Source: a candidate division WOR-3 bacterium | GTDB lineage: Bacteria > Hydrothermota > Tepidihabitantia > Tepidihabitantales > CAIPLT01 | NCBI GenBank assembly: GCA_965649215.1 | Contig: CBFGJZ010000013.1 | Coordinates: 9,241-41,648, forward strand | Direction of reading: 5' to 3' | Length of the DNA: 32,408 nt | Shown: in pieces, positions 5,808-29,698 of the stretch | How the letters are laid out: each line of letters begins with the position of its first letter | Numbering within the stretch: position 1 is the first letter of the stretch | Notes under the pieces: model-generated | Database searches by the model: none | Seen by the model: only the letters and a program-made list of their open reading frames with translations | What the model was told of the DNA's origin: nothing | Made by a program: the position numbers and the translations under genes

Positions 5808-7098
5808 GCCGAGAATGATAGGCTTTTATTGCCATTAGTTTGTCTCGCGTTTGTTGAGAAACTCCTGGGAAGATAGCATTATTATGATATAAGGGATCAA
5901 TCGAATCAGTGGAAAATAGTTTTTGATAACCTTGAGTAAAAGGAATTGGCGAATATTCAGCAAGATGACTTATAATGCCTTGTTCATTTAAGAAGTCAAT
6001 GCTTTGTCTAATAGATTCAATATCAATTTCAGGAAGTCCAATTAAGAGATAGGCATGAAGTTGAGTGCGATTAAAGCCACTTTTCTTCAGATACTGCACT
6101 GCTTGAATGAATTCTTCAATTTGAACTTTGTTATCAATTTTGCGATGAATATTAAAATCAATTGTTTCTAAACTTAAATAAATGGTCTTAAAACCAGCCG
6201 TATACATTTTATCGCTAAGTTGTTGGGTTATAAAACGGGGATGTAAACCATTTGGAGAATGAAGATTTATTTTATATTTGTTTTTAATGATTTGGTCTAA
6301 AATTGATTCAAAGTTAGGATTAGCTAATAAGGCGTCATCATAAAAGGCAAGGTTAGTAATATTAAGACTGAGATCGTATTCAATTTCCTGCATGACCGAC
6401 GAAAGTGAACGAAATGTAAATCGGGGCGTTAAGAAAGGTACTGCACAATAAGTACAATTAAAACAACAACCGAGTGATGTTAAGATTACCGCATAATCTA
6501 ATTTGGAATATAAATCAAAAGCGGGATTAGGTAGTTGTTCAAAAGGAATTGGTTTAATCTCCGCTAAAAGTGGGGTGAGATTTTGTTCTGCGCGACCCCT
6601 TATTACATAATCGGCATTACTGTGATTTTGGGCATGTTCAAAACAGAGTGTCGGATAAATCCCACCAAGGACAATTGGAGTGTCGGGAAAGTATTCTTTG
6701 AGTATTTTGATGACATCAAAAGTACCAAGATACCAATAAGTCATAATTGAAGTGATAAAAATCCAATCTGGTTTGGGTAAACTAACAAGGATTTTACGGA
6801 AAAGATGAGGGGGAATGCCATATCGTTTGTATTTGCGAGGATAGTTTTGATAGATGGAAGGTTTAGGAATTTCTTCAGCATAAAATTTGCCCCTCCCATA
6901 TTCATCAACCTTGGGAAGTTTGTCAATATTGTTTACTAAGATAGGATGATAACGGTCTAATAAATCAAGATAGTCAATTTGCCAACCAGCATTTCTTAAT
7001 ATTGACGCCAAATATAGTAAGCCAAGCGGTTTACTCCAAAAATCAAAAGCTTTAAAATCATAGATCCACGGATTTATTAATAATGCACGTTTGGGCAT
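5791..7098 (-). CDS. B12-binding domain radical SAM protein
   Basis: N-terminal LINP...PLGLLYLAS and VLGGIYPT (B12-binding type) followed by the CxxxCxxC motif in TSLGCCFNCTYC, plus FYDDAL and PNGLH. Confidence 0.85.
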   Translation of the reverse strand: MPKRALLINPWIYDFKAFDFWSKPLGLLYLASILRNAGWQIDYLDLLDRYHPILVNNIDKLPKVDEYGRGKFYAEEIPKPSIYQNYPRKYKRYGIPPHLFRKILVSLPKPDWIFITSIMTYWYLGTFDVIKILKEYFPDTPIVLGGIYPTLCFEHAQNHSNADYVIRGRAEQNLTPLLAEIKPIPFEQLPNPAFDLYSKLDYAVILTSLGCCFNCTYCAVPFLTPRFTFRSLSSVMQEIEYDLSLNITNLAFYDDALLANPNFESILDQIIKNKYKINLHSPNGLHPRFITQQLSDKMYTAGFKTIYLSLETIDFNIHRKIDNKVQIEEFIQAVQYLKKSGFNRTQLHAYLLIGLPEIDIESIRQSIDFLNEQGIISHLAEYSPIPFTQGYQKLFSTDSIDPLYHNNAIFPGVSQQTRDKLMAIKAYHSRLRHTS

Positions 7099-14293: not shown

Positions 14294-14800
14294 ATGTTAA
14301 TTCTTGATTGGTTAATAATAATAATCGCGGCTGGTATTATTGTTGTTCAAACTGCCCGCAGTATTAAAGATTTTGAATATGTATTTTTTGAGATGTTGGG
14401 ATTATTGTTAGCAGCATATTTAGTTACGAAATACTATTATCCTTTATCTTTAAAAACCACAACTAACCCCGCGCTTACTTTATTGGTATTCTATTTGGTT
14501 TGTCTGTTTGTAATGATTATTGTTGCTGATCTTATTGCGAATAAATTACAATTTTCTTTAGCACCGTTTGATCCTTATTTAGGATTTATATTAGCAGTAA
14601 TTAGTGCATGGTCGATATTATATATTTTGCTAAATGTCGTAAAAATTGCTTTCCCCAATGGTTTGATTCTAAAACTAATTGGTAAAGAGATAATAATTTT
14701 TGATATCTGGGATAATTCGCCATTAGCAAATGAAATCTTAAATTTTAATTCATTTAAAGCAGTGGCTAATTTTTTAAACCGAGTTAAATTAAGCGAATGA
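14294..14800 (+). CDS. Membrane protein, CvpA-like
   Basis: Four TM helices, N-terminal ILDWLIIII, DxxLG motif and SPLA near the C-terminus. Confidence 0.55.
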   Translation: MLILDWLIIIIAAGIIVVQTARSIKDFEYVFFEMLGLLLAAYLVTKYYYPLSLKTTTNPALTLLVFYLVCLFVMIIVADLIANKLQFSLAPFDPYLGFILAVISAWSILYILLNVVKIAFPNGLILKLIGKEIIIFDIWDNSPLANEILNFNSFKAVANFLNRVKLSE

Positions 14801-15306
14801 TACATATTTACACGGGTAATGGCAAAGGCAAGACGACCGCAGCAATCGGTCAGGCGATAAGAGCTTTAGGACATAATTATAAAGTGCTGATGATTCAATT
14901 TATGAAAGGCGATCCCGATTACGGGGAAATTAAAACAATCAGCAAAATAAAGAATTTTAAGGTAATTCAGTCAGGACTACCAACATTTGTAGAAAAAGGT
15001 AATCCTACCACAGAGGATATGAAACTCTCCCAAAATGGATTTGCGTTGGCTAAGAAAGCGATCAACAAGAAGAAATACCAAATGATAATTTTAGATGAGA
15101 TAAATGTAGCAATTGATTATGGATTAATTAAATTGTCTGATGTAGTAAAACTTATTAAGAGCTGTCCTAAACAAATTGAACTCATCTTAACTGGTCGCTA
15201 TGCACCTAAAGAACTAATAGAAATAGCAGATTTAGTTAGTGAAATAAAAGAAATAAAACATCCCTATCAAAAGGGATTTGTATCCAGAAAGGGAATAGAT
15301 TATTAA
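14797..15306 (+). CDS. cobO: Cob(I)alamin adenosyltransferase (CobO/BtuR/CobA type)
   Basis: YTGNGKGKTTAA, QFMKG, ILDEIN, LTGR, KHPY...GIDY. Confidence 0.95.
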   Translation: MIHIYTGNGKGKTTAAIGQAIRALGHNYKVLMIQFMKGDPDYGEIKTISKIKNFKVIQSGLPTFVEKGNPTTEDMKLSQNGFALAKKAINKKKYQMIILDEINVAIDYGLIKLSDVVKLIKSCPKQIELILTGRYAPKELIEIADLVSEIKEIKHPYQKGFVSRKGIDY

Positions 15307-15325
15307 AATTAAAACTGCTACAAAT

Positions 15326-16276
15326 ATGATAAATCAACTTATAAAAGATTTTATTAAGAAAGATGAACGGGCTTTAAGTCAGTTAATGACGATCGTTGAG
15401 AATAATGGAGAAGATGCTAAAACAATTTTGAATCGACTTTATCCAAAGCTACCTCGAGCTTGGCGTATTGGTATTACTGGACCACCAGGAGCAGGCAAAA
15501 GCACTTTAGTTGAAAAATTAGCAACGGAATGTGTTAAACATAAATTAACAGTCGGTATTGTCTGTATTGACCCAACCTCGCCATTCAGCGGTGGTGCAAT
15601 TTTAGGCGATCGAGTGCGAATGTCGTCATTATTTTTAGACCCGAAAGTTTTTATTCGTAGTATGGCAACTCGTGGTAGTTTAGGTGGAATTGCCAAGGCA
15701 ACGAAACAACTTTGTGATTTATTAGATGCGTTTGGCAAAGATATTATTATCATTGAAACAATTGGTGTGGGACAAGTTGAATTAGATGTAGCTGGTATCG
15801 CATATACAACGATTGTTGTTTTAGTGCCAGAAGCCGGTGATGCAATTCAAACAATGAAAGCAGGACTAATGGAAATTGCTGATATTTTTGTAGTGAATAA
15901 ATCAGATCGTGAGGGGGCTGACAAATTAGTTATGGAAATCCAATCAATATTAGAAATGCAGGAATTTGTACGCGTACCACCTGTGCTTAAGACAATTGGC
16001 ACTGAGGGAATTGGTATCACAGAATTGTATAAAAATATTCTTGACCATCGCAGTTATTTGGAAAATAGCCAAAAAATAAAAGAACGCTGGCAAGTTATCA
16101 TCAATAACGAAATTAAGGAGTTAGTGCAAGAAGAGGTTGATAAGCAAATCTGGCAGAATTCGAAAATAAGACTTGAATTAGCTAATTTTATTGATAAAAT
16201 AATTGAAGGTAATGAAACACCTTTTAATGCTGCAGATAGAATTATAAAGATGTGGAGTCAAATAAGGAGGAAATAG
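15326..16276 (+). CDS. meaB: Acyl-CoA mutase-associated GTPase chaperone MeaB/ArgK
   Basis: [41 protein letters not shown]. Confidence 0.95.
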
Positions 16277-17883
16277 TGAAGCAAAAAGGTAATCAATTGA
16301 TAACTGATAAAACAATCTCCGGCATACCTATAAAAATCGTATATGTTCCTGCTGATATTAAAGATTTAGATTATGAACAGGATTTAGGTATGCCTGGCCA
16401 TTTTCCATTTACCCGAGGAATTCGAGAAACGATGTATCGTGGACGATTATGGACAATGCGTCAGTTCTCAGGTTTTGGTACGGCGAAAGATACAAATAAA
16501 CGCTACAAATTTCTTTTATCTCATGGGGAAACAGGTTTATCAGTTGCTTTTGATTTTCCTACTCTCTATGGTCGAGACTCGGATGACCCCTTGAGTGAAG
16601 GTGAAGTTGGTAAATGTGGTGTGGCGATATCTTCATTGGCAGATATGGAAACATTATTTGATGGTATTCCTATGGGTGAAGTATCAACTTCAATGACAAT
16701 TAATGGGCCGGCTGCAGTAATCTGGGCATTTTATATTGCGGCTGCTGAAAATCAGGGTGTGAAATCACAGGTTTTACGCGGAACAATTCAAAATGATATT
16801 TTAAAAGAATATATTGCTCAAAAATCATGGTTATTTCCACCGCAACCATCAATGCGGATTATTACCGATATTATGGCGTTTGCAGCAAAAGAAGTACCAA
16901 AATGGAATACAATCTCAATCAGTGGTTATCATATTCGCGAAGCTGGTTCAACTGCAGTACAAGAACTTGCCTTTACATTAAAAGACGGGCTTACTTATGT
17001 TGAAGAAGGTATTAAAGCTGGTTTAGATGTTGATGTATTTGCACCTCGTCTTTCTTTTTTCTTTAATTCGCATTTAGATTTTTTTGAAGAGATTGCTAAA
17101 TATCGTGCAGCCCGAAGAATTTGGGCAAGAGAAATGAGAAATACTTATAAAGCTAAAAAGCCTGAATCATGGTTACTTCGATTCCACACTCAAACTGCAG
17201 GATGTACTTTAACCGCCCAGCAACCTGAAAATAATATTGTTCGAACCGCATTTCAAGCATTAGCCGCAGTTTTAGGTGGCACCCAAAGTTTGCATACTAA
17301 TTCGATGGATGAAACTTGGGCGTTACCTACAGAAAAAGCAGTTTTGATTGCCCTACGAACTCAACAACTAATTGCATATGAAACCAATGTTGCTAATGTG
17401 ATTGACCCATTAGGTGGTTCATATTATCTCGAAGCACTTACAAACAAAATGGAAGAAGAAGCATATCAATATTTTGAAAAGATCGATAAAATGGGCGGTA
17501 TGATTAAAGCAATTGAAAATGGTTATCCACAACGAGAAATTGCCAATGCTGCTTATCAGTACCAACAAGCAGTGGAAAAAAAGCAAAGAATAATTGTTGG
17601 TGTTAATGATTTTGTTGTCCAGGGTGAGAAATTAGAAATCCCGATACTAAAGATTGATCATCGCGTAGCCGAAGAACAACATAAACGATTAAAAATGTTA
17701 AGAAAAAAACGGGATAATAATAAAGTTAAAAAAGCTTTAAAAGAATTGAAACATGTGGCACAAACTAAAGAAAATATTATGTATCCGATCTTAGAAGCAG
17801 CTAAAGCTTATGCGACTTTAGGTGAAATTTGCGGAACTTTAAAAGAAGTGTTTGGTGTTTATAAAGAACCACCGATGTTTTAA
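16276..17883 (+). CDS. icmA: AdoCbl-dependent acyl-CoA mutase large subunit, isobutyryl-CoA mutase type
   Basis: MCM-family motifs (WTMRQxx[25 protein letters not shown]). It has RQF and IAQK where MCM has RQY and Arg. The start is probably GTG 16276, after AAGGAGG. Confidence 0.8.
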
Positions 17884-17899
17884 TTTTAAGGAGGATAGA

Positions 17900-18313
17900 A
17901 TGAACAAAAAGTTAAGGATATTGATTGCCAAACCCGGGTTAGACGGTCATGATCGTGGCGCCAAAGTTGTTGCGCGGGCATTACGTGATGCTGGTTTTGA
18001 GGTCATTTATACCGGTCTACACCAGACCCCAGAAATGATTGTAAATACTGCAATTCAAGAGGATGTTGATGCAATTGGATTATCAATTCTATCCGGTGCT
18101 CATATGACAATTTTTCCTAATGTTTTGAAGTTACTTAAGAAAAAAAGAGCAAGTGATATTCTACTTTTTGGAGGTGGTATAATTCCTGAAGAAGATAAAA
18201 AAGCTTTATATAAATTAGGAGTTGGCAAGTTATTTGGACCTGGTACAGATACTGCCGAAATCGTTGATTATTTAAACAAGTACTTCAAATTAAATAGCGG
18301 AGCAAAACAATGA
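17900..18313 (+). CDS. icmB: Acyl-CoA mutase small (cobalamin-binding) subunit
   Basis: GLDGHDRG (DxHxxG), GLSILSG, GGGII. Start ATG 17900 follows AAGGAGG. Confidence 0.85.
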
Positions 18314-19860
18314 AAATGGATGAGGGTATTAAACGATTGCAAAAGTTAAAAGAACAAGCCAAATTAGGGGGAGGACAAGACCGAATTGACAAACAGCACG
18401 AATCAGGCAAACTAACTGCACGAGAACGACTTGATATTTTACTTGACGAAGGCAGTTTTCAAGAATTCGATGCCTTTGTAACCCATCGCATCTATGATTT
18501 TGGTATGCAGAATAAAAAAATATTGGGCGATGGAGTTGTGACCGGAGTTGGTAAAATTGAAGGTCGTGATGTCGCTGTTTTTTCTCATGACTTTACTGCT
18601 TTTGGTGGTACCTTATCCGAAACATTTGGTTTGAAAGTTATGAAGATTATGGATTTAGCAATGAAATTGGGTATTCCTATAATTGGTCTTAATGATTCGG
18701 GTGGTGCTCGTATACAAGAAGGAGTGGTTAGTTTAGCAGCTTATGCTGAAATATTTTGGCGGAATACTCAAGCATCGGGTGTAATTCCGCAAATCTCAGC
18801 AATTATGGGACCTTGTGCTGGTGGTGCAGTCTATTCGCCAGCTTTAACTGATTTTATCTTTATGGTAAAAAATACTAGTTATATGTTCATTACTGGTCCT
18901 GAAGTTGTCAAAACTGTTACTCATGAACAAGTTAGTTTTGAACAATTAGGTGGTGCTCAAATTCATGCTTCAAAATCTGGTGTTGCCCATTTTGTTAGTG
19001 AAGATGATAAAGATTGTCTCTTGAGTGTTCGTAACCTAATGTCTTATTTACCGTTGAACAATTTAGATGAACCACCATTGATTGACAGTGATGATGATCC
19101 GAATCGAGAAGATGAAGAACTAAATAGGATAATTCCAGATGACCCGAATAAACCTTATCAGATGAAAGATGTCATTTTACATATTGTTGATTACGATTCG
19201 TTTTTGGAAGTTCATAAAGATTATGCTCCTAATATCATTGTCGGATTTGCTCGATTAGACGGACGAGTTGTCGGCATTATTGCTCAGGAACCATCGATAA
19301 TGGCAGGTGTTTTAGATATTGATGCTTCGCTTAAGGGCGGACGATTTATCCGTTTTTGCGATGCTTTTAATATTCCAATAATTACATTTGAAGATGTCCC
19401 AGGTTTTCTACCAGGTACTGTTCAAGAACACGGTGGTATTATAAAACATGGCGCAAAACTATTATATGCATATTGCGAAGCAACTGTACCCAAAATAACA
19501 ATCATTACTCGTAAATCATATGGCGGTGCTTATTGTGTCTTAGGTTCCAAACAAGTACGAGCGGATATTAATTTAGCATGGCCCACTGCAGAACTTGCGG
19601 TAATGGGACCCGAAGGCGCAGTTAATATAATCTATCGTAAAGAAATAAACGAGGCTGAAGATCCCCAAGCATTGCGTCAAAAATTAATTGATGAGTATCG
19701 GGATAAGTTTGCTAATCCTTATGTAGCTGCAAGTCGTGGTTATGTTGATGATGTCATTGAACCTAAAACAACACGCCGCGAACTAATTAAATATTTAAAA
19801 TTATTAGATACGAAACGGGATAAATTGCCACCCAAAAAGCATGGTAATATTCCGTTATAA
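18310..19860 (+). CDS. Acyl-CoA carboxylase/decarboxylase carboxyltransferase subunit (PccB/MmdA family)
   Basis: [43 protein letters not shown]. Confidence 0.93.
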
Positions 19861-19890
19861 TATAAAAATTTGATAAGATAAGGAGAAACT

Positions 19891-21381
19891 ATGGCAAAAA
19901 TATACAAAAATTTTATCAATGGTAAATATCTTCCATCAAGTTCGGGTAAAACTTATAAGAACTTAAATCCTGCTAACACCGATGATGTGGTTGGTATTTT
20001 CCCACTATCCGAAAGCGAAGATGTTAATAAAGCAGTTAGGGCTGCTAAAAATGCCTATGAAAAATGGCGTAAAGTACCAGCACCACAACGGGGTGAAATT
20101 ATTCGCAAAGCAACGGAAATTCTTATTAAACGAAAAGAAGAGTTAGCGCGTATTATGACACGAGAAATGGGTAAAGTTTTAAAAGAAACTCGCGGTGATG
20201 TTCAAGAAGCAATCGATACCGGACTTTATGCTGCGGGCGAAGGTAGAAGGCTATTTTCTTATACGGTGCCTTCGGAATTAAGAAATAAAATGGCATTTGT
20301 AATTCGCCGGCCAATGGGTGTATGGGGAGTTATTTCGCCGTGGAACTTTCCCATGGCAATTCCATCTTGGAAGATCTTTCCTGCATTGTTATGTGGTAAT
20401 ACAGTTGTTTTTAAACCAGCGACTGATACTCCAGCCAGCGCCGGTGAATTTGTTGATGCTTTAGTTGAAGCAGGTATTCCCGATGGCGTTGTTAACATTA
20501 TTTATGGTTCTGGAAGTAAAGTTGGAGAAGCTCTGTTACATCATCCTGATATTTGTGGCATAACCTTTACTGGTTCGTCTCAAATTGGAAAAAGAATTGC
20601 AGAAGTATGCGGTAAGACTTTGAAAAGGTGTTCTTTAGAGTTAGGTGGTAAAAATGCTCAAATTGTAATGGATGACGCAGATTTAGATTTAGCTTTAGAT
20701 GGAGTGCTTTGGGGTGCGTTTGGTACAACTGGTCAACGCTGTACAGCTACCTCGCGTTTAATATTACACGAAAAGGTTTATGATAAGTTTTTAGCGATGT
20801 TAAAAAAACGTACTGAACAGTTAAAGGTAGGAGATGGATTGGACGAAAAAAACGAAGTCGGTCCTTGTGTTTCTGAAGCACAAAGACAAACTGTTCATAG
20901 TTATGTTGAGATTGGTCTCAAAGAGGGTGCAAAATTGTTATGTGGTGGTGAACCATTAACAAAAGGTAAATACGCTAAAGGATTTTTCTATAAACCAACT
21001 ATCTTTGTCGATGTGATACCCGAGATGCGAATTGCTAAAGAGGAAATTTTTGGACCTGTCCTTTCAGTTTTAAAGGTTAAAAATTTGACTGAAGCAATTA
21101 AAGTTTTAAACAACACTCAATATGGTCTATCTTCTTCAATCTATACGAAAGATGTTAATAATGCTTTTAAAGCCATAGAAGATATTGAAGCGGGAATTAC
21201 TTATATCAATGCTCCGACAATTGGTGCAGAATGTCATTTACCATTTGGTGGTGTTAAAGAGACTGGGAATGGACATCGTGAAGGTGGTTGGACGGTATTT
21301 GAAATCTTCTCTGAACTCAAAACCGTGTATGTTGACTATTCAGGTTCGCTTCAAAAGGCGCAGATAGATACCTGGGACTAA
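19891..21381 (+). CDS. NAD(P)-dependent aldehyde dehydrogenase
   Basis: PWNFP, FTGS, LELGGKN, GQRCTA, EEIFGP, PFGG; AAGGAG SD. Confidence 0.95.
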   Translation: MAKIYKNFINGKYLPSSSGKTYKNLNPANTDDVVGIFPLSESEDVNKAVRAAKNAYEKWRKVPAPQRGEIIRKATEILIKRKEELARIMTREMGKVLKETRGDVQEAIDTGLYAAGEGRRLFSYTVPSELRNKMAFVIRRPMGVWGVISPWNFPMAIPSWKIFPALLCGNTVVFKPATDTPASAGEFVDALVEAGIPDGVVNIIYGSGSKVGEALLHHPDICGITFTGSSQIGKRIAEVCGKTLKRCSLELGGKNAQIVMDDADLDLALDGVLWGAFGTTGQRCTATSRLILHEKVYDKFLAMLKKRTEQLKVGDGLDEKNEVGPCVSEAQRQTVHSYVEIGLKEGAKLLCGGEPLTKGKYAKGFFYKPTIFVDVIPEMRIAKEEIFGPVLSVLKVKNLTEAIKVLNNTQYGLSSSIYTKDVNNAFKAIEDIEAGITYINAPTIGAECHLPFGGVKETGNGHREGGWTVFEIFSELKTVYVDYSGSLQKAQIDTWD

Positions 21382-21461: not shown

Positions 21462-22772
21462 CTAGTCAAGATTAGTTAACTCTTTAAAATGTTCTTTGAA
21501 GATACGATAGTACATCAGTTCTTCTTTGCTTGACAACTGCCAGCCGCAGGGTAAAACAGATTCTTTGTTAAAATCTGGATCAGAAATATTTTTACGAGCG
21601 TACTCAGAGATTAATTCACCAATGCCAGCACCCTGCCAGAATTTTGCTTTGGTTCGATTTACGACAGAGTCGGGTAATAAATTATCCAGCGCCTGGCGTA
21701 ATATCCATTTTTCAATATTATTACGGAGTTTATATTCAGTTGGAATTTGTAATGCATATTCGACAACCGCTGGGGCAACAAACGGAACCTGCGCAGTCAA
21801 GCCAAATGCCGACGCACAGCGGTCAACTCTTTGTAAAGTAGTATTATGAAGACGGTTCATAATATCAACCAATTCATCGGCCAAAAAGAGCGGATTGAGA
21901 GTTTTTAAGTATTCGTAGCCGGCAAATAGTTCATCTGCGCCTTCGCCAGAAAAAACTTCGGAAACATACTGAGCCGCAGTTTTTGCGGCTAAGTAATTGG
22001 TGATACTGGAACGAACTAATAAGGCGTCAAATGATTCGAGATGATAGATAACTTCAGGTAAAGCTTTAAGCAAATCTTGAAAAGTGACAATTACTTCGTG
22101 GTGATGTAATTTCTGTCCAGATTGTAAATTAGATTTAAGATAATCAACAACAATCCGGGCAAATTTGATATCGGGTGCGTCTTTTAAACCGGTGGCAAAG
22201 GTGTGGATAGTTTTCGCATATTTACTCAAGAAACTGACAATTGCGCTCGAATCAAGCCCGCCAGAAAGCCAGGCACCAATCTGGTTGCCGATAATTTTAT
22301 TTTCAATCTCATGACATAAAAGCATGCGTAATTCATAAGCAATAGTTTCTGGTAAGCGGTTAAAAGAATCCTGTTTTTGATAATGTTTTTGTGCAATAAA
22401 GGTATTGTCTTGATAAAGATAACCTGGTGGAAATTCTTTGATATTGTGAGTGATATTTAACAGTGCTTTGACTTCTGATGCAAAACAGAGTGCGCCGTTG
22501 ATTTTACAATAATATAATGGAGTTATGCCTAAAGGGTCTCGCCTTAGTAACAGTTTATTGTCTTTAATTATAATCGGTATTAATTTATTCAAGTCGTTCT
22601 GTCGCTCACCGAGAATATTTGACTCGAAATTGGCATAGACAATACTGAGTGTGGCATTGTCGGTTTGAAATATTTCATTACTAAATTTGCCCCGATGTCG
22701 AATCTTTTGTAACATTTGCTGCACAAGTTCATTTTGATTAATTCGAAAAATACCTGCAATACCATAAGACAT
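21462..22772 (-). CDS. Asparagine synthetase-like ATP-dependent amide/lactam ligase with a degenerate glutaminase domain
   Basis: Synthetase motifs LSGGLDSS, SGEGADELFAGY, RVDR, KWILR. The N-terminus MSYGIAG lacks the catalytic Cys and the NGEIYN motif is absent. Confidence 0.85.
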   Translation of the reverse strand: MSYGIAGIFRINQNELVQQMLQKIRHRGKFSNEIFQTDNATLSIVYANFESNILGERQNDLNKLIPIIIKDNKLLLRRDPLGITPLYYCKINGALCFASEVKALLNITHNIKEFPPGYLYQDNTFIAQKHYQKQDSFNRLPETIAYELRMLLCHEIENKIIGNQIGAWLSGGLDSSAIVSFLSKYAKTIHTFATGLKDAPDIKFARIVVDYLKSNLQSGQKLHHHEVIVTFQDLLKALPEVIYHLESFDALLVRSSITNYLAAKTAAQYVSEVFSGEGADELFAGYEYLKTLNPLFLADELVDIMNRLHNTTLQRVDRCASAFGLTAQVPFVAPAVVEYALQIPTEYKLRNNIEKWILRQALDNLLPDSVVNRTKAKFWQGAGIGELISEYARKNISDPDFNKESVLPCGWQLSSKEELMYYRIFKEHFKELTNLD

Positions 22773-24415
22773 TATTTGTTGCCTTTGTGAAGTAGTGTTT
22801 TTAATCTTTGTGTTTCGGTCATTGGTTTACCAGTGCGGGGATTGATAACAAGATATTTGCCATTAATTGGTGCAGTAATAATTGTTCCTTGAGCAACCTT
22901 GGAATCGACCAGGTGTGGTGCATCAAGGATTCCATTTTTAACCGCCGTGTATAAAACATCCGGATTGGTCAATGGGTCGGCTACTTTTTTATTTATCTCT
23001 TTTATTGCATTCAGTATTAACTTTGCTTGTTGAATCAGTTCCTGTTTTCGTTTTTGGATAATGCGGTCAGAGATAATGTTTGGTAACTGTTTTAATGCTA
23101 ATCGAATTGCACCATGAGTGATTTTAGCGCTCTCAATAATCTCTTTGGCAGTAGCATTGTAATTGGCTTCGCAATAACCGACAACATGGACGATATGCGG
23201 TTTGAGCATCATACCGACCAAGACGGACGCGGCTAAATGTCCTTTGGCAATATCTGGTTCAGGCGGCATACTCCGTAAACCAGTTCTAATTTGACGAAAA
23301 CTGTTAAAATTACTGTCGTGCAAAGATTCAATCATTTCGATTTTCGCAAGCATTTTTGCCAAGTCCATTTGGGGACTGGTTTCAGGCGGAGTATTGAGCA
23401 TATATTGGGATACATAATTTCTGACACCCAGTTTTTTCGCATTATACGCGGCTAAATAAGCAGTTGCCACAGCCAATGCATCATGACTGTCACGCAAACT
23501 CCATTGATGGGCATCATTAACTTCAATTGGGATATTATGTTTTGCATACCATTTAATCGTTGCCTGATTTTCTTTTATGGCGTTGAGTAAAGTTCGATTT
23601 GAGCGTCGGTCAAGTTCATTATACCAGAATAAAGGCACAGCGCCCCAGGCAATCCTGATAGTTTTAACCAACATTTTTGCCCAATCGATTAAATGGTCAG
23701 TGCCGGCATAACATCTGAGTAAGGGATAATTACCACAACGGGTTGCTTGATAGATTGCCTTTAAATCAGACGCTTTACGGATTGGCACACCACCAGCACC
23801 GCTGCCAGATTTTGGCATCTGATTTGGCGTGAAAAAGTATTGCTGGGCATTCTGGTCTGGAGCAATACTGATAATATCCAATACTTTTGCCAAAGCGATT
23901 TTTTTGGCATCAATCACAGTCTGCTTGACGGTTTTTAAACCGAGATGATGTCTTAACAGGGGATAAGGATAGTTTTGTTTAATACGCTCTACTAAGGTTT
24001 GGGCATAATCTGTTTTTGCGTTGTTTCCTGATTTTGCTTTAAGATAATTGATTATGGTTTGAATTGATTCAGCGCCAGAAAAGACTGCTTCAAACATCTT
24101 AGTCTCTCGAGCAACTTTAGCGACCGAAGTCGTACCGCCAAAAGCAAGGCGAGTATTTTCAAGATGATATTTACGCAGTTCTTTTTTTAAGTCATTAAAT
24201 AAATCTTGAGCAGTTTCTGGCGATAGACGATAACTGACCACGGCTAAGTCAGGTTGTTTATCTTTAATTGCAGATACGAATTTTTTTATGCCGATGGCTG
24301 GACCTAAGAATTCCGTATCATACCCATGGTTTTGTGCCAAGCGTAGAAAATTTATAATACCGGCAACATGCACGCAATTACCAATACAAGCCCCTAAAAT
24401 TTTATTGCCTTGCAC
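22772..24415 (-). CDS. Cobalamin-binding protein with a C-terminal glutamate-mutase-like catalytic domain; function unknown
   Basis: N-terminal B12 Rossmann domain: GNCVHVAG (variant DxHxxG), LG, VSYRL (SxL-like), FGG. The ~400 aa C-terminal domain resembles glutamate mutase epsilon by eye (low-identity inference). Confidence 0.72.
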   Translation of the reverse strand: MQGNKILGACIGNCVHVAGIINFLRLAQNHGYDTEFLGPAIGIKKFVSAIKDKQPDLAVVSYRLSPETAQDLFNDLKKELRKYHLENTRLAFGGTTSVAKVARETKMFEAVFSGAESIQTIINYLKAKSGNNAKTDYAQTLVERIKQNYPYPLLRHHLGLKTVKQTVIDAKKIALAKVLDIISIAPDQNAQQYFFTPNQMPKSGSGAGGVPIRKASDLKAIYQATRCGNYPLLRCYAGTDHLIDWAKMLVKTIRIAWGAVPLFWYNELDRRSNRTLLNAIKENQATIKWYAKHNIPIEVNDAHQWSLRDSHDALAVATAYLAAYNAKKLGVRNYVSQYMLNTPPETSPQMDLAKMLAKIEMIESLHDSNFNSFRQIRTGLRSMPPEPDIAKGHLAASVLVGMMLKPHIVHVVGYCEANYNATAKEIIESAKITHGAIRLALKQLPNIISDRIIQKRKQELIQQAKLILNAIKEINKKVADPLTNPDVLYTAVKNGILDAPHLVDSKVAQGTIITAPINGKYLVINPRTGKPMTETQRLKTLLHKGNK

Positions 24416-25983
24416 TATCGCCTACCTTCTTCAACAAAACGACGGATTTGCCGAACCGTCATACCATCTAAGCCGAGTTTGTTAATAGTTCGACCTTCTG
24501 CCCAGTAATTCCGATTATGCAAGACATTGGCAAGTTGAATGATTGATTTCATGGTCGGTACTTTAACCCCCAGATATTCTCCCAATGATGCGATTGGCAC
24601 CAGGCTGGTTGGTACATCTTCAGCAATATAGCGATGGTCAATTGTATTTGGCGCTAAAATACCGTGGTAATTATAATTTGCCTGAATTGCTTCATATAGA
24701 TTATCACCAGCAACGCCATATGCCTGATAAATCCATTCTCGCGCAGTCAACACCCTGATACCCAATGCTTCAGCGACTTTGACCCGCTCGGCATCGAGCG
24801 CTTCCAAGACCAGCGACACCGAAGGGCTGGCACCTTCGTGGTAATAACTAAAATTGCCTTTTTCATTTTCAATCCAGGCAGTATTAAGAACAGTCAAGGC
24901 AGGATGAAAGATTGCGCCAATATTACTCAGACCAGTTTTCAAGACATTATCACCAGCAACAAACTGATGAAATGTATTTTTCAGTGATGCTAAAACATCA
25001 GGCAGGTGAAATGCGGGCAGGGTTGCGATAGGCACTGCATTTTTAATTCCAAAAATCCGAACCTGACCCGGATTTGTAATTCTTGATGCATAGAGCAGGG
25101 TTTCAGCTTCAGCCAGAAAATAATATTTATTGATTTTTAACTGACGGAGCATTTCAGCAAAAACCAGAGCGCCACCAGTCCGACCCGGATTTAACAAAAC
25201 TATTTGACCATCGGTAAGGTGTGGTCCTAAAATTCGAGCCATTTCAATATGACCCAAAGCCGGCACCACAACCATGACGATATCAACATCTGCTAATGCC
25301 TGCTTGACATCGGTTGTAACCAAATTTAACTTTGCAGTGCCGTTAATCTCACCGGTAACTTCAATTTCATTACTCGCCTGAATGGTTCGAATCCGGTCTG
25401 CACTGCGGTTATACAGGTTGACTTTACGACCGGTCAAAGCCAGATGTGCTGCCATTGCTAAACCGCCATTACCAGCACCAACAATACAGATAGTCTGAGA
25501 GTCTTCAGCCGGTTCAATTTGCCCGAGCGGTAATTCCTGCTCTTTAATAAAATTCAATATCCCGGCGGGTGATTCTGTTTTTAATAAAGTTTCTGTAAAA
25601 AAAGGTTCGTGAAAAAGATGCGCAAGACGACTTAAAATTTTAAGCTGAAAATTATGTCCGATTAAACGATTAATCACCAGAAAAATTATGTTTGCTGGTT
25701 TATCATCAATGGCATTAAAATCAATACCCGATTTACTGATGCCAATGGCGATGATTGGTTGATGCACGGCATTGGTGCAGGTATGCGGAATTGCAATACC
25801 CTGACCAATGCCAAAAGTGCCTTTGCGTTCAGTCGCCTGCAGGTCTTTAACAGCCAGTTCAGGATTACTTAATCGCCCGGCATTTTTCAATGCTTCGGTT
25901 AATTCTTGATAAACTTCTAATCTGGTGGTGCTTTTTAAATCAAGTATAATTGCATTTTCGACAATGAATTTGTGAATAAACAT
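24415..25983 (-). CDS. PTS EIIA domain fused to an NAD/NADP octopine/nopaline (opine) dehydrogenase
   Basis: N-terminal GIGQGIAIPH (EIIA-2); C-terminal GAGNGG, NPGRTGG, NIGAIFHP, LDAER, HRYIAEDVP. Start ATG 25983 follows a GAGGTG SD (the track uses 25992). Confidence 0.88.
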   Translation of the reverse strand: MFIHKFIVENAIILDLKSTTRLEVYQELTEALKNAGRLSNPELAVKDLQATERKGTFGIGQGIAIPHTCTNAVHQPIIAIGISKSGIDFNAIDDKPANIIFLVINRLIGHNFQLKILSRLAHLFHEPFFTETLLKTESPAGILNFIKEQELPLGQIEPAEDSQTICIVGAGNGGLAMAAHLALTGRKVNLYNRSADRIRTIQASNEIEVTGEINGTAKLNLVTTDVKQALADVDIVMVVVPALGHIEMARILGPHLTDGQIVLLNPGRTGGALVFAEMLRQLKINKYYFLAEAETLLYASRITNPGQVRIFGIKNAVPIATLPAFHLPDVLASLKNTFHQFVAGDNVLKTGLSNIGAIFHPALTVLNTAWIENEKGNFSYYHEGASPSVSLVLEALDAERVKVAEALGIRVLTAREWIYQAYGVAGDNLYEAIQANYNYHGILAPNTIDHRYIAEDVPTSLVPIASLGEYLGVKVPTMKSIIQLANVLHNRNYWAEGRTINKLGLDGMTVRQIRRFVEEGRR

Positions 25984-26085
25984 TGAAATCACCTCACAAT
26001 CTTTACAAGTTTAGGTTAATTATACAATATTAGTCGCCCCATCAATAATTTCCTTGCCGCAAATTGTATAAGAACTGTTTATTAA

Positions 26086-26114
26086 AGTATAATGAAAATT
26101 GTTAATATGGTCAA
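26086..26114 (-). promoter_or_regulatory. sigma70-type promoter of the opine dehydrogenase operon
   Basis: TTGACC-17 nt-TATACT about 100 nt upstream of ATG 25983. Confidence 0.6.
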
Positions 26115-26185
26115 CCTAAAATTCTAAAAAAATTAGATTGTTTAATTAAAAATTATTCACAGATTACGATATATTGGATGATAAA

Positions 26186-27028
26186 CTATTCAATCACCGA
26201 TTTGATTTTGATTCGTTTGTCTTCTTGGGTGAGATATGCCATGGCAATTTTAGGGTCGTGTTCAAAGAAAGAGACCCAGTTTTCAGCTACGGCTTGGGTT
26301 AAAAGTTTCTGTTTATGTTCCATGGTTTCTAAGGGAAATAAGTCATAAGCCATGAGATAGGGAAGACTAATATGTGAAACTGTCGGAATCAGATCACCCC
26401 AATAGATTAAAGTTTGATTTTCTGAAGAAATTTTAACCACTTGATGGCCAAAAGTATGTCCTGCGGTCTTCATAACTTCAATGCCATCAATTATTTGTTC
26501 CTGTTCATTAACTAAACAGAGCTGATTATTTTCTTTTAGTGGTAGAAAATTTTCTTTAAGATAACTGGCTTTAGATCGCCGATCTGGATTATTGGCTGCT
26601 TCCCATTCGCTTTTCTGGATATAATATTTAGCATGTGGAAAAGTCGGTACTACTTTGCCATTTGCATCAACTTTTGTATTACCACCACAATGGTCAAAAT
26701 GAAGGTGGGTATTTATGACAATATTGATATCAGTTACTTGATAGCCAAGTTTTTGTAAAGATTGTTCAACTGTCGTATGATGATTTACTTGATAGATATT
26801 ATTGAATTTTTCCTGTCCTTTATCACCGATACCCGTATCAATAAGAACAAGTTCTTTACCGGTATTGACAAGACAGGTTCTTAAAGCCAATAAAATACGA
26901 TTATTTTCGTCAGCAGGATTAGTTTGGTGCCATAATACTTTTGGGACGACACCAAACATGGCACCGCCGTCGAGTTTAAATAAACCATCCAGCAGTGGAT
27001 AAATCTCAAATTTTCCTAATTTCAACAC
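26186..27028 (-). CDS. Metallo-beta-lactamase-fold hydrolase (YtnP-like)
   Basis: LDGGAMFGVVPK, THLHFDHCGG, GHTFGH, GDL, FEHD. Confidence 0.9.
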   Translation of the reverse strand: MLKLGKFEIYPLLDGLFKLDGGAMFGVVPKVLWHQTNPADENNRILLALRTCLVNTGKELVLIDTGIGDKGQEKFNNIYQVNHHTTVEQSLQKLGYQVTDINIVINTHLHFDHCGGNTKVDANGKVVPTFPHAKYYIQKSEWEAANNPDRRSKASYLKENFLPLKENNQLCLVNEQEQIIDGIEVMKTAGHTFGHQVVKISSENQTLIYWGDLIPTVSHISLPYLMAYDLFPLETMEHKQKLLTQAVAENWVSFFEHDPKIAMAYLTQEDKRIKIKSVIE

Positions 27029-27067
27029 AGATGATAAATAATATTAAATAAGGTGGATTTATTTTTG

Positions 27068-27637
27068 TTATGCTTGAGTGGCAACCGCTCGCTTACCTGC
27101 TTTCTTACGGACATATTCACCTTTATAGCGGATTCCTTTACCGTGATACACATCAGGAGGCTTGGTGGCACGAATTTCAGCAGCGATTTCACCTACGAGT
27201 TGTTTATCAGCACCTTTAAGGGTAATTTCAAACATCTGTTCTTTTGTATCTTCTGGATTAGGGACTTGTTTGATATCAACGCTAATCTCTTTGGGAATTG
27301 TAAAATCAACAGGATGGATGAAACCAACATGAACTTGAAGACCTTCTTTGGTCTTTTGAGCACGATATCCCATACCCCGCACTTCAAGAATTTTTTCGAA
27401 ACCAACTGTTACTCCTTTCAGCATATTTTTCAGGTGAGCTTGAATTGTGCCAACATACATAGACGAATTCGGTTGTTTTTCAGTAACTGTAATCATATTA
27501 TTTTCGATTTTCACATTTACCGTTGGATGGATTTTAAGTTGCAATTCACCTAATGGACCTTTGACAGTTATTTTATCATCCGCTTGCTGGATCGTTACTC
27601 CAGACGGAATCGGAATTGGTTTATTTCTTTTTGCCAT
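27068..27637 (-). CDS. rplF: 50S ribosomal protein L6 (uL6), orphan and divergent copy
   Basis: KPIPIPSGV, VKGPLGEL, NMLKGVTVGFEKILEVRGMGYRA, GADKQLVG, GKGIRYKGEYVRKKAGK. Confidence 0.93.
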   Translation of the reverse strand: MAKRNKPIPIPSGVTIQQADDKITVKGPLGELQLKIHPTVNVKIENNMITVTEKQPNSSMYVGTIQAHLKNMLKGVTVGFEKILEVRGMGYRAQKTKEGLQVHVGFIHPVDFTIPKEISVDIKQVPNPEDTKEQMFEITLKGADKQLVGEIAAEIRATKPPDVYHGKGIRYKGEYVRKKAGKRAVATQA

Positions 27638-27645
27638 AGATAATA

Positions 27646-27673
27646 ATTATACTAAAAAAAATCTAATCGTCAA
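27646..27673 (-). promoter_or_regulatory. sigma70-type promoter of rplF
   Basis: TTGACG-16 nt-TATAAT, 8 nt before the ATG. Confidence 0.7.
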
Positions 27674-27707
27674 GAATAATTATCTTTACGAAATAACTAT
27701 CTATAAA

Positions 27708-27735
27708 TTGACTTTTTAGTTTTTAACGATAAAAT
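27708..27735 (+). promoter_or_regulatory. sigma70-type promoter of the EIIA-permease gene (back-to-back with the rplF promoter)
   Basis: TTGACT-16 nt-TAAAAT, 7 nt before ATG 27743. Confidence 0.65.
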
Positions 27736-27742
27736 AATACAA

Positions 27743-29698
27743 ATGGAAAATTTTAGTTTGAAAACATTTTTTTCACCTGATTTAATTTTTATTAATGATC
27801 AATTAGAAAATCAGGAAGCGGTTTTTCATTTCATTGCCGATAAATTACAAGAGAAAAATCTAATTGATAACACTTCAAGGAACGAAGTTATTGAATTACT
27901 AAAAAATCGTGAAATTAGCACTTCAACAGGTATTGGTAATGGCATTGCTGTACCCCATATAATTTTACCAAATATTAATAAGATTTTTGGTTGTGTTGTT
28001 AAGCTTGACAAAGGAATTGATTGGAAGGCTATTGATGGACAGAGCGTAAAATTAATTGTCTTTCTTTTTGCGCCGGCGAGTCAGCGTCAATTTTATTTGC
28101 AAGTTTTAGCAATGATTGCGCAGCATTTAAATTCGCCTTTGGTCTTAAATAAACTCTTAAAAACCAAAAAGACAAGTGTTATCTATCAAATAATTACAGA
28201 GGGCTATCAAGGTAATTTTTTTGAAAGGTATCGTCGCGCAATTTACTTTTTAGGCGGACTGATTTTCTTTTTTATCCTTGCGAAATTTATCTTTTCTTAT
28301 GTTAAAATACCAGATTTAGAAATCTATCAAAAACTTGATTATTTAAAGTTTAATGAAACGGTTTGGATTAATAAAGAAATCATTTCGATGATGCTTTTCT
28401 TTAGTATGGTTTTGGGTACCTTACTATTCTTCCGTTTCCGAGTTGCTTTTGGAGCAGCGGCATTATGTCTTTTATTGCTTGCGGGCGTGATGGATATTGA
28501 GACAACGGTCAAATTTATGTCAATACCGACAATACTTTTTATCATTTCGGTAATGGTTTTAGTAAAATGGTTTGAAGCAAAAGGAGTCTTTAAATACTTA
28601 GTAGTGCGAGCATTAAAATATTTTCATAATTCGCCGATGCTGTTATTTGCGGCGTTGATGTTTTTTTCGGCTATCTTAGCAGGGTTGATTGACGAAGTTT
28701 CAGCAATTCTAATCACTTTTGGCATTGCGATGGAAATCGCTCGACATACAAAAATTAGCATTATTCCTTATCTCTTAGGATTAGTAATGGCAACTAATAT
28801 TGGTAGCGCGATGACTTTAATTGGTAATCCGATTGGTATCTATCTTGCTTTTGCAGGTAAACTTACTTTCTTTGATTTCTTGAAAAACTCAACCATAATT
28901 TCTCTATTCAGTGTTATTATCATAATATTAATTGTGTTATTTTTCTTTCGTAAAAAAATAAAAAGTGAAGGGAAAGTTGATATTACCGAAATTGAAAATA
29001 ATATTGAAGTGCCCGAGCGAAAAGAACTTTTAATCGCAACCATTGTTTTTGCGATTTTCGTTATATTTATTGTGTTACATTCTTGGTTAGAGCATTTACT
29101 ACGAGTTGAAGAACGAACCGTACTTTTAGCAACCGTACTTGGCATAGTCGGTTTTATTGTTTTACGAGAAGAAGAGCGAGGAAGGTATTTTATTGAAAAA
29201 GGACCAGATTGGTGGACTGTGCTTTATTTTATGTTCTTATTTGCCAATGCTGCGTGTTTGGAATATACAGGTGTTACGGCTAAATTGGCGCATCTTTTAG
29301 TAGCAGCGGCACATAATTTACCCTTAGGATTTTTAGGTCATCTTAAAGAAAGCACAGGTATTATGTCTCTTATGTTGTGGAGTTCAGGAATTTTATCAGG
29401 ATTTGTTGATAACTTACCGATTGTTGCTGCTTTAGTACCCGTGGTCAAAGATTTAACTGCGCAAGGTATTTTTGGTTCTAATATCTTCTGGTGGGGACTT
29501 TTATTAGGTGGTTGTTTTGGTGGCAATCTAACTATGATTGGCTCAACCGCAAATTTAGTGGCAATTGGTTTATACGAAAAATCGTTTCGTAAGAAATTTC
29601 ACTTTACAGAATGGATTAAAATTGGTATTATCGTGACCATCGTATCCCTTATCATGGCAAACTTAATATTATTTGTAAAATTATTATTAATTAAATAA
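27743..29698 (+). CDS. PTS EIIA domain fused to an ArsB/NhaD/CitM (ion transporter superfamily) permease
   Basis: N-terminal NREISTSTGIGNGIAVPH; C-terminal multi-TM domain with ATNIGSAMTLIGNP, SGFVDNLP and GGNLTMIGSTAN. Confidence 0.88.
   Translation: MENFSLKTFFSPDLIFINDQLENQEAVFHFIADKLQEKNLIDNTSRNEVIELLKNREISTSTGIGNGIAVPHIILPNINKIFGCVVKLDKGIDWKAIDGQSVKLIVFLFAPASQRQFYLQVLAMIAQHLNSPLVLNKLLKTKKTSVIYQIITEGYQGNFFERYRRAIYFLGGLIFFFILAKFIFSYVKIPDLEIYQKLDYLKFNETVWINKEIISMMLFFSMVLGTLLFFRFRVAFGAAALCLLLLAGVMDIETTVKFMSIPTILFIISVMVLVKWFEAKGVFKYLVVRALKYFHNSPMLLFAALMFFSAILAGLIDEVSAILITFGIAMEIARHTKISIIPYLLGLVMATNIGSAMTLIGNPIGIYLAFAGKLTFFDFLKNSTIISLFSVIIIILIVLFFFRKKIKSEGKVDITEIENNIEVPERKELLIATIVFAIFVIFIVLHSWLEHLLRVEERTVLLATVLGIVGFIVLREEERGRYFIEKGPDWWTVLYFMFLFANAACLEYTGVTAKLAHLLVAAAHNLPLGFLGHLKESTGIMSLMLWSSGILSGFVDNLPIVAALVPVVKDLTAQGIFGSNIFWWGLLLGGCFGGNLTMIGSTANLVAIGLYEKSFRKKFHFTEWIKIGIIVTIVSLIMANLILFVKLLLIK

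Follow-up and report, generated by a model that had tools for sequence, protein, structure and literature searches.

The DNA stretch analyzed here (the window, 32,408 nucleotides) covers positions 9,241 to 41,648 of contig CBFGJZ010000013.1 from a candidate division WOR-3 bacterium (assembly GCA_965649215.1). On its minus strand, an open reading frame with a GTG start (22772..24415) encodes a protein of 547 amino acids, P0001, which resembles the two glutamate mutase subunits GlmS and GlmE joined in a single chain, as judged by alignment, a predicted model and profile comparison with hhalign. P0001 is best read as an adenosylcobalamin (AdoCbl)-dependent isomerase derived from GlmES that works together with an opine dehydrogenase of the acidic type, encoded directly upstream, and we consider this assignment probable.

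Residues 12–19 of P0001 read GNCVHVAG, which constitutes a CxHxxG variant of the His-on cofactor loop (C14-V-H16-V-A-G19, 24359..24376, minus strand) with C14 at the position of the Asp in DxHxxG. This was already seen in the first-pass annotation of the window, which was made from the letters alone and which also stated correctly that the radical-SAM motif CxxxCxxC is absent: P0001 contains five cysteines (residues 10, 14, 227, 235 and 415), none of them so arranged. In an alignment of 27 relatives with 38–80% identity, C14, H16 and G19 were each at least 90% conserved. A motif census of the 262 relatives in which the loop region aligned yielded CxHxxG in 252, DxHxxG in eight and neither motif in two. 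The variant was likewise found in 120 of the 120 long, MutL-fused relatives listed, out of 167 long relatives in all. Among the DxHxxG cases are two ordinary members (P0109 and L029) and a paralogous group of about 600 amino acids with DPHTxG. The Cys therefore sits exactly where the canonical loop has its Asp. Cys14 is a hallmark of the family and not the quirk of a single gene.

Two side observations concern the same loop. In the full-length relative P0141 (549 amino acids), the entire loop, with its His, is lost (PKYTNE) and the barrel is kept. The paralogous group (P0161, P0162, P0166, P0180, P0184, G107:C1:1289574-1290809 and G143:C26:27927-29183; about 600–650 amino acids, 32–37% identity) matches strongly over the barrel part alone and has the canonical DPHTxG loop and a longer linker.

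The loop belongs to an N-terminal B12-binding Rossmann domain of about residues 1–130 (24026..24415, minus strand) without a preceding helical cap. The canonical B12 motifs are spaced as DxHxxG-x41-SxL-x26-28-GG, which served as the yardstick for the further signature of P0001, SYRL at residues 61–64 and FGGT at residues 92–95. R63 is invariant in the 27-relative alignment, and L64, G93 and G94 are at least 90% conserved. The Pfam B12-binding family PF02310 matched residues 5–96 with 31.5 bits in the protein scan (cut-off 32.1); when the genome was searched in six frames, it passed the cut-off with 34.2 bits. The profile built from the 27-relative alignment matched solved B12 domains (4jgi, E 2.5e-5; 7xcn, E 1.4e-4; OraE, E 0.0017; 2yxb and GlmS) and aligned the N-terminal domain with residues 2–98 of GlmS/MutS. 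In a superposition with VIA-align, residues 2–127 of the model fitted 4jgi_A with Z 16.1. NCBIfam gave only sub-threshold matches of P0001 to methylaspartate mutase S (MutS), and a PDB search with the single sequence of P0001 returned a chance match at E 1.5 and nothing else.

The C-terminal part of about 400 residues is a GlmE-type TIM barrel in the AlphaFold2 model of P0001, which was built on the alignment and reached a pLDDT of 92 and a pTM of 0.84. The model divides this part into a (β/α)8 barrel of the GlmE/KamD/OraE type (about residues 136–445; 23081..24010, minus strand) and a helical and β extension (residues 446–547; 22775..23080, minus strand), which both VIA-align and hhalign aligned with the C-terminus of GlmE. 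In Foldseek, the top rank went to glutamate mutase E (6h9e_B, E 1.2e-16) and the next ranks to the ornithine and lysine aminomutases and to acyl-CoA mutases. VIA-align superposed residues 136–537 of the model on residues 43–443 of GlmE 1cb7_B (Z 33.0, root-mean-square deviation 3.0, 374 residues) and gave Z 32.7 for 6h9e_B, 31.3 for KamD 8t0v_A (331 residues) and 28.1 for OraE 3kow_A; methylmalonyl-CoA mutases (MCM) scored about Z 22, and pterin-binding barrels resembling DHPS (dihydropteroate synthase) about Z 16. Furthermore, hhalign aligned the 27-relative alignment colinearly with nine true GlmE sequences taken from Clostridia genomes over 377 columns, reaching residue 547, at E 9.6e-5 and a probability of 58.5%. 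Two relatives, P0137 with 27.5 bits and P0107 with 28.1 bits, barely reached the 26.6-bit cut-off of the GlmE family PF06368 (Met_asp_mut_E), which P0001 did not match in the Pfam scan. Since the N-terminal domain aligns with GlmS/MutS, "natural S-E fusion", as the first-pass annotation had called the protein, is a fair label.

To compare the putative active sites, the invariant residues of the nine GlmE sequences were used: R72, R106, R155, E177, Y187, K332 and E336. With 6 subtracted, we take these to be Arg66, Arg100, Arg149, Glu171, Tyr181, Lys326 and Glu330 of Clostridium cochlearium GlmE, of which Arg66, Arg100 and Arg149 presumably form the arginine claw that binds glutamate. In the stretch that hhalign aligned with the highest confidence, RHGT of GlmE is paired with YAGT of P0001, so that Arg149 is replaced by Tyr236 (23708..23710, minus strand), which is invariant among the 27 relatives and identical in all 121 rows of the long-relative alignment. 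At lower confidence, Arg100 is aligned with Gln191. The regions around Arg66 and Glu171 were aligned unreliably; R155 of P0001, also identical in 121 of 121 rows, may take the place of Arg66. RSMPP is aligned with MGGFP of GlmE, and IVHVVGYCEA with KVIVKTPxEA, which puts Glu416 (23168..23170, minus strand) at the place of Glu330 with medium confidence. Glu416 is at least 90% conserved among the 27 relatives, and Glu is found there in 121/121 rows. Structural work, in the parts bearing on this residue, describes Glu330 of GlmE as contacting the adenosyl ribose, as Glu338 of ornithine aminomutase does (PMC3958899, PMC4413051). The adenosyl-handling part thus seems to be retained and the glutamate claw remodelled. 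With an invariant Tyr in place of the Arg149 contact, the substrate is presumably not free glutamate.

These comparisons bear out most of what the first-pass annotation had proposed. The segments it listed do occur in the order given (ISIAPDQNAQ 182–191, GGVPIR 208–213, RCYAGT 234–239, QYMLNTP 337–343, TGLRSMP 378–384 and HVVGYCEA 410–417), and the GlmE blocks it named reappear in the hhalign pairs YAGT/RHGT (high confidence), RSMPP/MGGFP and HVVGYCEA/KVIVKTPxEA. Its suspicion of changed substrate contacts agrees with the putative replacement of Arg149 and, with less certainty, of Arg100, and the relation it proposed to the TIM barrels of AdoCbl isomerases was recovered by the AlphaFold2 and Foldseek runs.

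The gene upstream of the mutase (24415..25992, minus strand) encodes an opine dehydrogenase that carries a fused EIIA_2 domain of the phosphotransferase system (PTS; motif IAIPH, His70), as found by Pfam, the match to 1bg6 and the sequence of the junction. The two genes are translationally coupled, the TAG stop of the dehydrogenase sharing one base with the GTG start of the mutase (TAGTG). In a survey of the best 80 loci, a homologue of the dehydrogenase lies beside the mutase at 78, nearly always directly upstream and on the same strand; it is absent at L065 and L074, and six of the matches are shortened by contig ends. Apparent fusions of the two proteins at L004 and L075 were rejected as artefacts: the former read runs through a stretch of N, and the N-terminal part of the latter is an out-of-frame, Arg-rich read of GC-rich DNA. 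A predicted complex of the mutase with the dehydrogenase domain scored 0.15 (mark 0.32).

The dehydrogenase domain matches 1bg6, the N-(1-D-carboxyethyl)-L-norvaline dehydrogenase of Arthrobacter (ArODH), end to end (E 3.2e-78). The part of a mutagenesis study that deals with specificity reports that it shifts from hydrophobic amino acids to the L-Asp/L-Glu type when ArODH position 111 is Arg and position 198 is Gly, with pyruvate and NADPH as co-substrates of those opine dehydrogenases (Telek 2024, PMC10787698). By alignment with 1bg6, the partner of P0001 has both determinants, R271 (LNPGR) and G359 (SNIG), and the pair (R112, G200) is invariant across 27 partner dehydrogenases. The partner thus appears to be of the acidic-amino-acid type. 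With the Arg/Gly pair present, an N-(1-carboxyethyl) acidic amino acid is therefore the most likely pathway intermediate, as far as this alignment tells. The kinetics given for the dehydrogenases called mODHs in that study are weak on L-Asp (kcat/KM 0.04 s-1 mM-1; Telek 2024, PMC10787698), which hints at a true substrate other than L-Asp.

A further link to glutamate mutase comes from the reactivase. The relatives of 1,200–1,260 amino acids are fusions with the MutL/GlmL reactivase domain PF13941, which was found in 120 of 120 listed among the 167 long relatives (E ≤ 1e-20), five of them checked individually. In P0273 (1657 amino acids; a cluster of four member sequences from three contigs), opine dehydrogenase, B12 domain, barrel and MutL are united in one chain. 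The genome to which the window belongs (1.64 Mb, 95% complete) has a single MutL gene (422.8 bits; G000:C1:133210-134631, L003 7187..8989), which is unlinked to the mutase. It encodes 600 amino acids with a C-terminus about 120 residues longer than the Pfam model, and its neighbours are gcvT/H/P and serS, with a 117-residue open reading frame without a Pfam match in front. Canonical GlmE was found neither in this genome nor in five carrier genomes, which gave only weak matches belonging to the P0001 family. Only three proteins of the genome have a B12-binding domain above the cut-off, namely P0001, a B12-radical-SAM protein and the small subunit of MCM. As MCM has its own chaperone, MeaB, whose gene accompanies it in the window, we infer that the orphan MutL serves P0001. 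Co-occurrence in 150 Clostridia genomes points in the same direction: MutL is present in 12/12 carriers of GlmE and, unlinked, in five of eight carriers of the main family, compared with two of 130 genomes with neither (5/8 vs 2/130, Fisher p 2.9e-6, uncorrected for kinship).

AdoCbl is likely supplied by the ATP:corrinoid adenosyltransferase BtuR/CobO (PF02572, 214.7 bits), encoded at 14797..15306 (plus strand) in the neighbouring MCM operon; at locus L005, BtuR lies directly downstream of the mutase. The MCM operon itself (14797..21381, plus strand) is compact, comprising BtuR/CobO, MeaB, the large and small MCM subunits, a carboxyltransferase and an aldehyde dehydrogenase, and is convergent with the mutase operon.

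Downstream of the mutase, at 21462..22772 (minus strand), follows an AsnB-like amide ligase of 436 amino acids (Pfam Asn_synthase, 199 bits; 1ct9, E 3.2e-46), the ATG start of which shares one base with the TAA stop of the mutase (TAATG). With the N-terminus MSYGIAG it lacks the Cys and retains only a stub of the glutaminase domain. AsnB-like matches were found at 31 of the 80 loci, two of them short fragments, and the glutaminase Cys2 is missing in 21 of the 22 readable N-termini, L009 being the one with Cys2. The genes downstream of the dehydrogenase–mutase pair vary and include MarC, TldD/PmbA, Lgt, a hotdog thioesterase, a Ddl-like ATP-grasp ligase and MscS-type channels; the relative P0137 is itself fused to an ATP-grasp ligase. 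Therefore, the conserved core consists of dehydrogenase and mutase, with an optional amide-forming third step provided by unrelated ligases. In the flanks of the 80 related loci, neither a metallo-β-lactamase-fold gene nor an aldehyde dehydrogenase nor MutL was found at any (each 0/80). The metallo-β-lactamase-fold gene of the window (26186..27028, minus strand; identified by Pfam), 193 bp upstream of the EIIA–dehydrogenase gene, is thus probably not part of the module.

The family is large. Among the genome contigs, at least 586 stretches or species genomes encode a relative of P0001, with carriers in Bacteroidota, Aminicenantes, Firmicutes, Thermotogae, Ignavibacteria, Chloroflexi and several archaeal lineages, and the protein clusters number at least 7,873. 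Cultivable species among the carriers include Fervidicola ferrireducens, Tepidanaerobacter acetatoxydans and Rosettibacter primus. Their cluster and source names are generic (e.g., "methionine synthase").

The regulatory context differs between lineages. A c-di-AMP riboswitch (RF00379, 100–105 bits) lies directly before the dehydrogenase at L010, L017, L034 and L057, whereas at L053 it is one gene farther away on the upstream side. This makes five of seven Firmicute loci, L025 and L067 being without. Rfam scans found no riboswitch in 11 loci of non-Firmicute phyla, no match at the gathering score in the window and none at E ≤ 1 in 25800..27800; a Na+/Li+ riboswitch was not seen in the 18 loci scanned. 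The scan for promoters and terminators stayed at shuffle level (27 found, 22.9 expected). No RNA sequencing run was listed as containing the window, and one DNA run contained a fraction of 0.22 of its sequence words. The EIIA_2–dehydrogenase fusion recurs at L005 and L006 and, judged by alignment length, at L004. In the genome of P0001, the genes for EI and HPr are adjacent, and of the five EIIA_2 domains three belong to fusions, one with the dehydrogenase, one with a CitMHS transporter and one with an amino-acid permease. The second of these fusions (27743..29698, plus strand; Pfam) is divergent from the module and is given for context only. Outside the window, the coordinates recorded for the EIIA_2 fusions and the EI and HPr genes are G000:C17 (L101 70..1905) and G000:C4:63030-63672. 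Since no EIIC permease was found in this genome, the PTS phosphorelay looks purely regulatory. Proteins of the EIIA(Ntr) type are linked to potassium homeostasis. Because the Firmicute module stands behind c-di-AMP riboswitches and the EIIA fusion here would be under the EI/HPr phosphorelay, the pathway may make a small stress solute, a role we propose only tentatively.

The same enzymology could also run in the reverse direction, so that the module degrades, for fermentation, an acidic amino acid that is opine-like or branched. Among known enzymes, GlmE, KamDE and OraSE serve catabolism, and the carriers of the family are mainly anaerobes; that EIIA is also fused to an amino-acid permease and to a carboxylate transporter suggests control of uptake, and an aldehyde dehydrogenase and the MCM operon adjoin the module. 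On the other hand, an ATP-spending amide ligase is frequent as the third gene, AsnB-like at 31/80 loci and of the ATP-grasp type elsewhere, c-di-AMP riboswitches precede the module, and genes for mechanosensitive channels and MarC stand alongside it at some loci. Downstream catabolic genes are not conserved either, the aldehyde dehydrogenase and metallo-β-lactamase-fold genes each giving matches at 0/80 loci. The degradative direction is thus rather unlikely in our view, although it retains a real chance.

A different chemistry would be that of an aminomutase depending on both pyridoxal phosphate (PLP) and AdoCbl, of the lysine 5,6- or ornithine 4,5- type, which shifts an amino group so that the dehydrogenase acts on the new amine. 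The barrel scores of KamD and OraE are close to that of GlmE, the B12 domain of OraE matches the family profile, and the partner dehydrogenase performs C–N chemistry. In both aminomutases, the PLP-binding Lys is located 11 residues past the cobalt His (His133/Lys144 and His618/Lys629; PMC3958899). In the profile alignment, the PLP Lys of OraE lies within a four-residue insert ("khgg") that is absent from the family profile; P0001 has Ala27 at His+11, and its B12 domain contains no Lys conserved among the 27 relatives. Because this insert is missing, the chemistry is presumably not of the PLP-aminomutase type. Moreover, GlmE aligns over more residues than KamD (374 vs 331), including the C-terminal extension, and relatives reach PF06368 and not PF09043. 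The latter, the KamD family, was blank in the search of the genome of P0001, but the control was also without any match. Overall, an aminomutase appears improbable.

Even less credit can be given to a methylcobalamin-dependent corrinoid protein or methyltransferase, as the database names imply. The best sequence matches of the N-terminal domain, 4jgi and 7xcn, are indeed corrinoid proteins of methyltransferase systems, and the DHPS-like barrels are detectable at all. However, the barrel scores against AdoCbl isomerases (Z 28–33) are double the DHPS-type score, the Pfam match starting at residue 5 leaves no helical cap before the Rossmann fold, and the ribose-contacting Glu is conserved. Relatives are fused to MutL, an adenosyltransferase adjoins the mutase at L005, and no methyltransferase gene for a methyl donor or acceptor turned up in the flanks examined. 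Equally far-fetched is a loss of B12 catalysis marked by the Cys-for-Asp exchange, leaving a pseudoenzyme or a protein that senses B12 or redox state and regulates the dehydrogenase: the Asp is replaced in 252/262 members, P0141 lacks the His too and the protein-level Pfam score is slightly under the cut-off, but His16, Gly19, G93-G94, Glu416, Tyr236 and many Arg and Asp of the barrel are (near-)invariant across bacteria and archaea and therefore indicate a working active site, a sensor would have little use for a fused cofactor reactivase, and Cys and Asp are interchangeable at the loop position because eight members have Asp there.

Some observations weigh against reading P0001 as a GlmES-derived AdoCbl isomerase. 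P0001 lacks the DxHxxG Asp that is important in glutamate mutase, its protein-scan score falls short of the PF02310 cut-off, and PF06368 does not match it. KamD nearly equals GlmE in the superposition of the predicted model (Z 31.3 vs 33.0), the hhalign probability is just 58.5%, and the correspondences proposed for Arg66, Arg100 and Glu171 fall in low-confidence stretches. MutL is unlinked in the genome of P0001 and was not found in 3/8 of the Clostridia carriers, and the genes downstream of the pair vary. The stress-solute role rests on other lineages, because there is no riboswitch in the window or in the 11 non-Firmicute loci.

From the fold, motifs, gene linkage and fusions described above, we infer B12 binding, radical chemistry, substrate and role of P0001 as follows. 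His16 of the CxHxxG loop would bind the cobalt of a base-off/His-on cofactor, with the corrin facing the mouth of the GlmE-type barrel. Binding of the substrate would set off Co–C homolysis, whereby Glu416 may hold the adenosyl ribose and the 5′-deoxyadenosyl radical may drive a 1,2-rearrangement. The mutase and the translationally coupled opine dehydrogenase would act in one pathway, the Arg/Gly pair of the latter directing it to L-Asp/L-Glu-like amino acids and pyruvate, and the Cys-less AsnB-like ligase probably amidates a carboxylate. As substrate or product, an N-(1-carboxyethyl) acidic amino acid, or something closely related to it, is likely. BtuR would keep the cofactor active together with the unlinked reactivase of the MutL/GlmL type (G000:C1:133210-134631). 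A bolder version, which we regard as doubtful, is that a new class of AdoCbl radical enzyme rearranges the opine made by its partner, an N-(1-carboxyethyl) acidic amino acid, without PLP, by means of a Cys–His–cobalt arrangement undescribed in B12 enzymes, and that the amidated product would be a novel compatible solute in anaerobes of both bacteria and archaea, with its synthesis under the control of c-di-AMP in Firmicutes and of the PTS phosphorelay in this lineage.

To our knowledge, the AdoCbl-dependent isomerase reactions described so far number only about a dozen. The present family is large, spans bacteria and archaea and is without a curated family model, a solved structure or an assigned reaction. 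It can now be approached through its diagnostic residues (C14, H16, Y236 and E416), the fold, a dehydrogenase whose specificity class was measured experimentally in relatives, a dedicated reactivase and the regulatory elements. Knowledge of the product could bring to light a new B12 reaction, a naturally occurring Cys form of the His–Asp cofactor switch and possibly a stress solute of anaerobes.

Two further genes of the window are worth recording. The gene for ribosomal protein L6 (PF00347, 90 bits; 27068..27637, minus strand) is isolated between the metallo-β-lactamase-fold and EIIA–CitMHS genes, distant from any ribosomal operon within the window. A B12-binding radical-SAM protein of 435 amino acids is encoded at 5791..7098 (minus strand), between the lptF/G and DNA polymerase III delta′ genes.

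In comparison with known systems, glutamate mutase (GlmS/GlmE with GlmL/MutL; EC 5.4.99.1; Clostridium cochlearium; 1cb7, 6h9e) comes nearest. It shares with P0001 the Rossmann B12 domain, the His loop of which occupies residues 14–19 in both, the GlmE-type barrel with its C-terminal extension (Z 33.0), the putative ribose-contacting Glu and the association with the MutL family. In contrast to glutamate mutase, P0001 is a single chain instead of separate S and E subunits, has Cys for the loop Asp, an invariant Tyr for Arg149 and probably Gln for Arg100, and does not match PF06368; its partner is an opine dehydrogenase and not methylaspartase. Since the loop Asp, Arg149 and the two-subunit architecture all fail to agree, P0001 falls outside glutamate mutase proper. 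KamDE and OraSE (8t0v, 1xrs, 3kow) resemble P0001 in the class of the barrel (Z 28–31, slightly below GlmE) and have a His-on B12 domain, as P0001 putatively does. OraE is likewise a fusion of barrel and B12 domain, of which P0001 reverses the order, and the PLP lysine with its four-residue insert is absent from P0001. The partner dehydrogenase matches ArODH/CENDH (1bg6) over the full length and has Arg and Gly at positions 111 and 198, as described for the mODHs preferring L-Asp/L-Glu (PMC10787698), but differs from these enzymes by its fused N-terminal PTS EIIA_2 domain.

The family itself has been in print since 2009, when Zhang, Rodionov, Gelfand and Gladyshev predicted a novel B12-dependent family with a distant N-terminal B12-binding domain, always adjoining a pfam02317 dehydrogenase, with AsnB and D-Ala-D-Ala-ligase-like (Ddl) genes nearby, according to the section of that paper devoted to it (PMC2667541). 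The same operon, Hore_09740/09750, is mentioned for Halothermothrix orenii in the corresponding part of PMC2626281. The loci of P0001 show the pattern of the 2009 family, namely the N-terminal B12 domain, the pfam02317 neighbour and the AsnB- or Ddl-like ligase. The AdoCbl mutase class that the first-pass annotation called uncharacterised is indeed so but is not new to print, and a full-text literature search found no later paper assigning a function to this B12 family. It is an uncharacterised variant of the GlmES-type enzymes that was predicted earlier. In the parts of the two papers that treat it (PMC2667541, PMC2626281), which cover 11 genomes, the GlmE-type barrel and CxHxxG are not named, MutL fusions, the acidic type of the dehydrogenase and the regulation are likewise absent, and the function is left open. 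For the window, the present analysis adds the census of the loop motif, the absence of the insert with the PLP lysine, the co-occurrence count of MutL, the triple fusion of opine dehydrogenase, mutase and MutL, and the EIIA fusion within a PTS that lacks EIIC.

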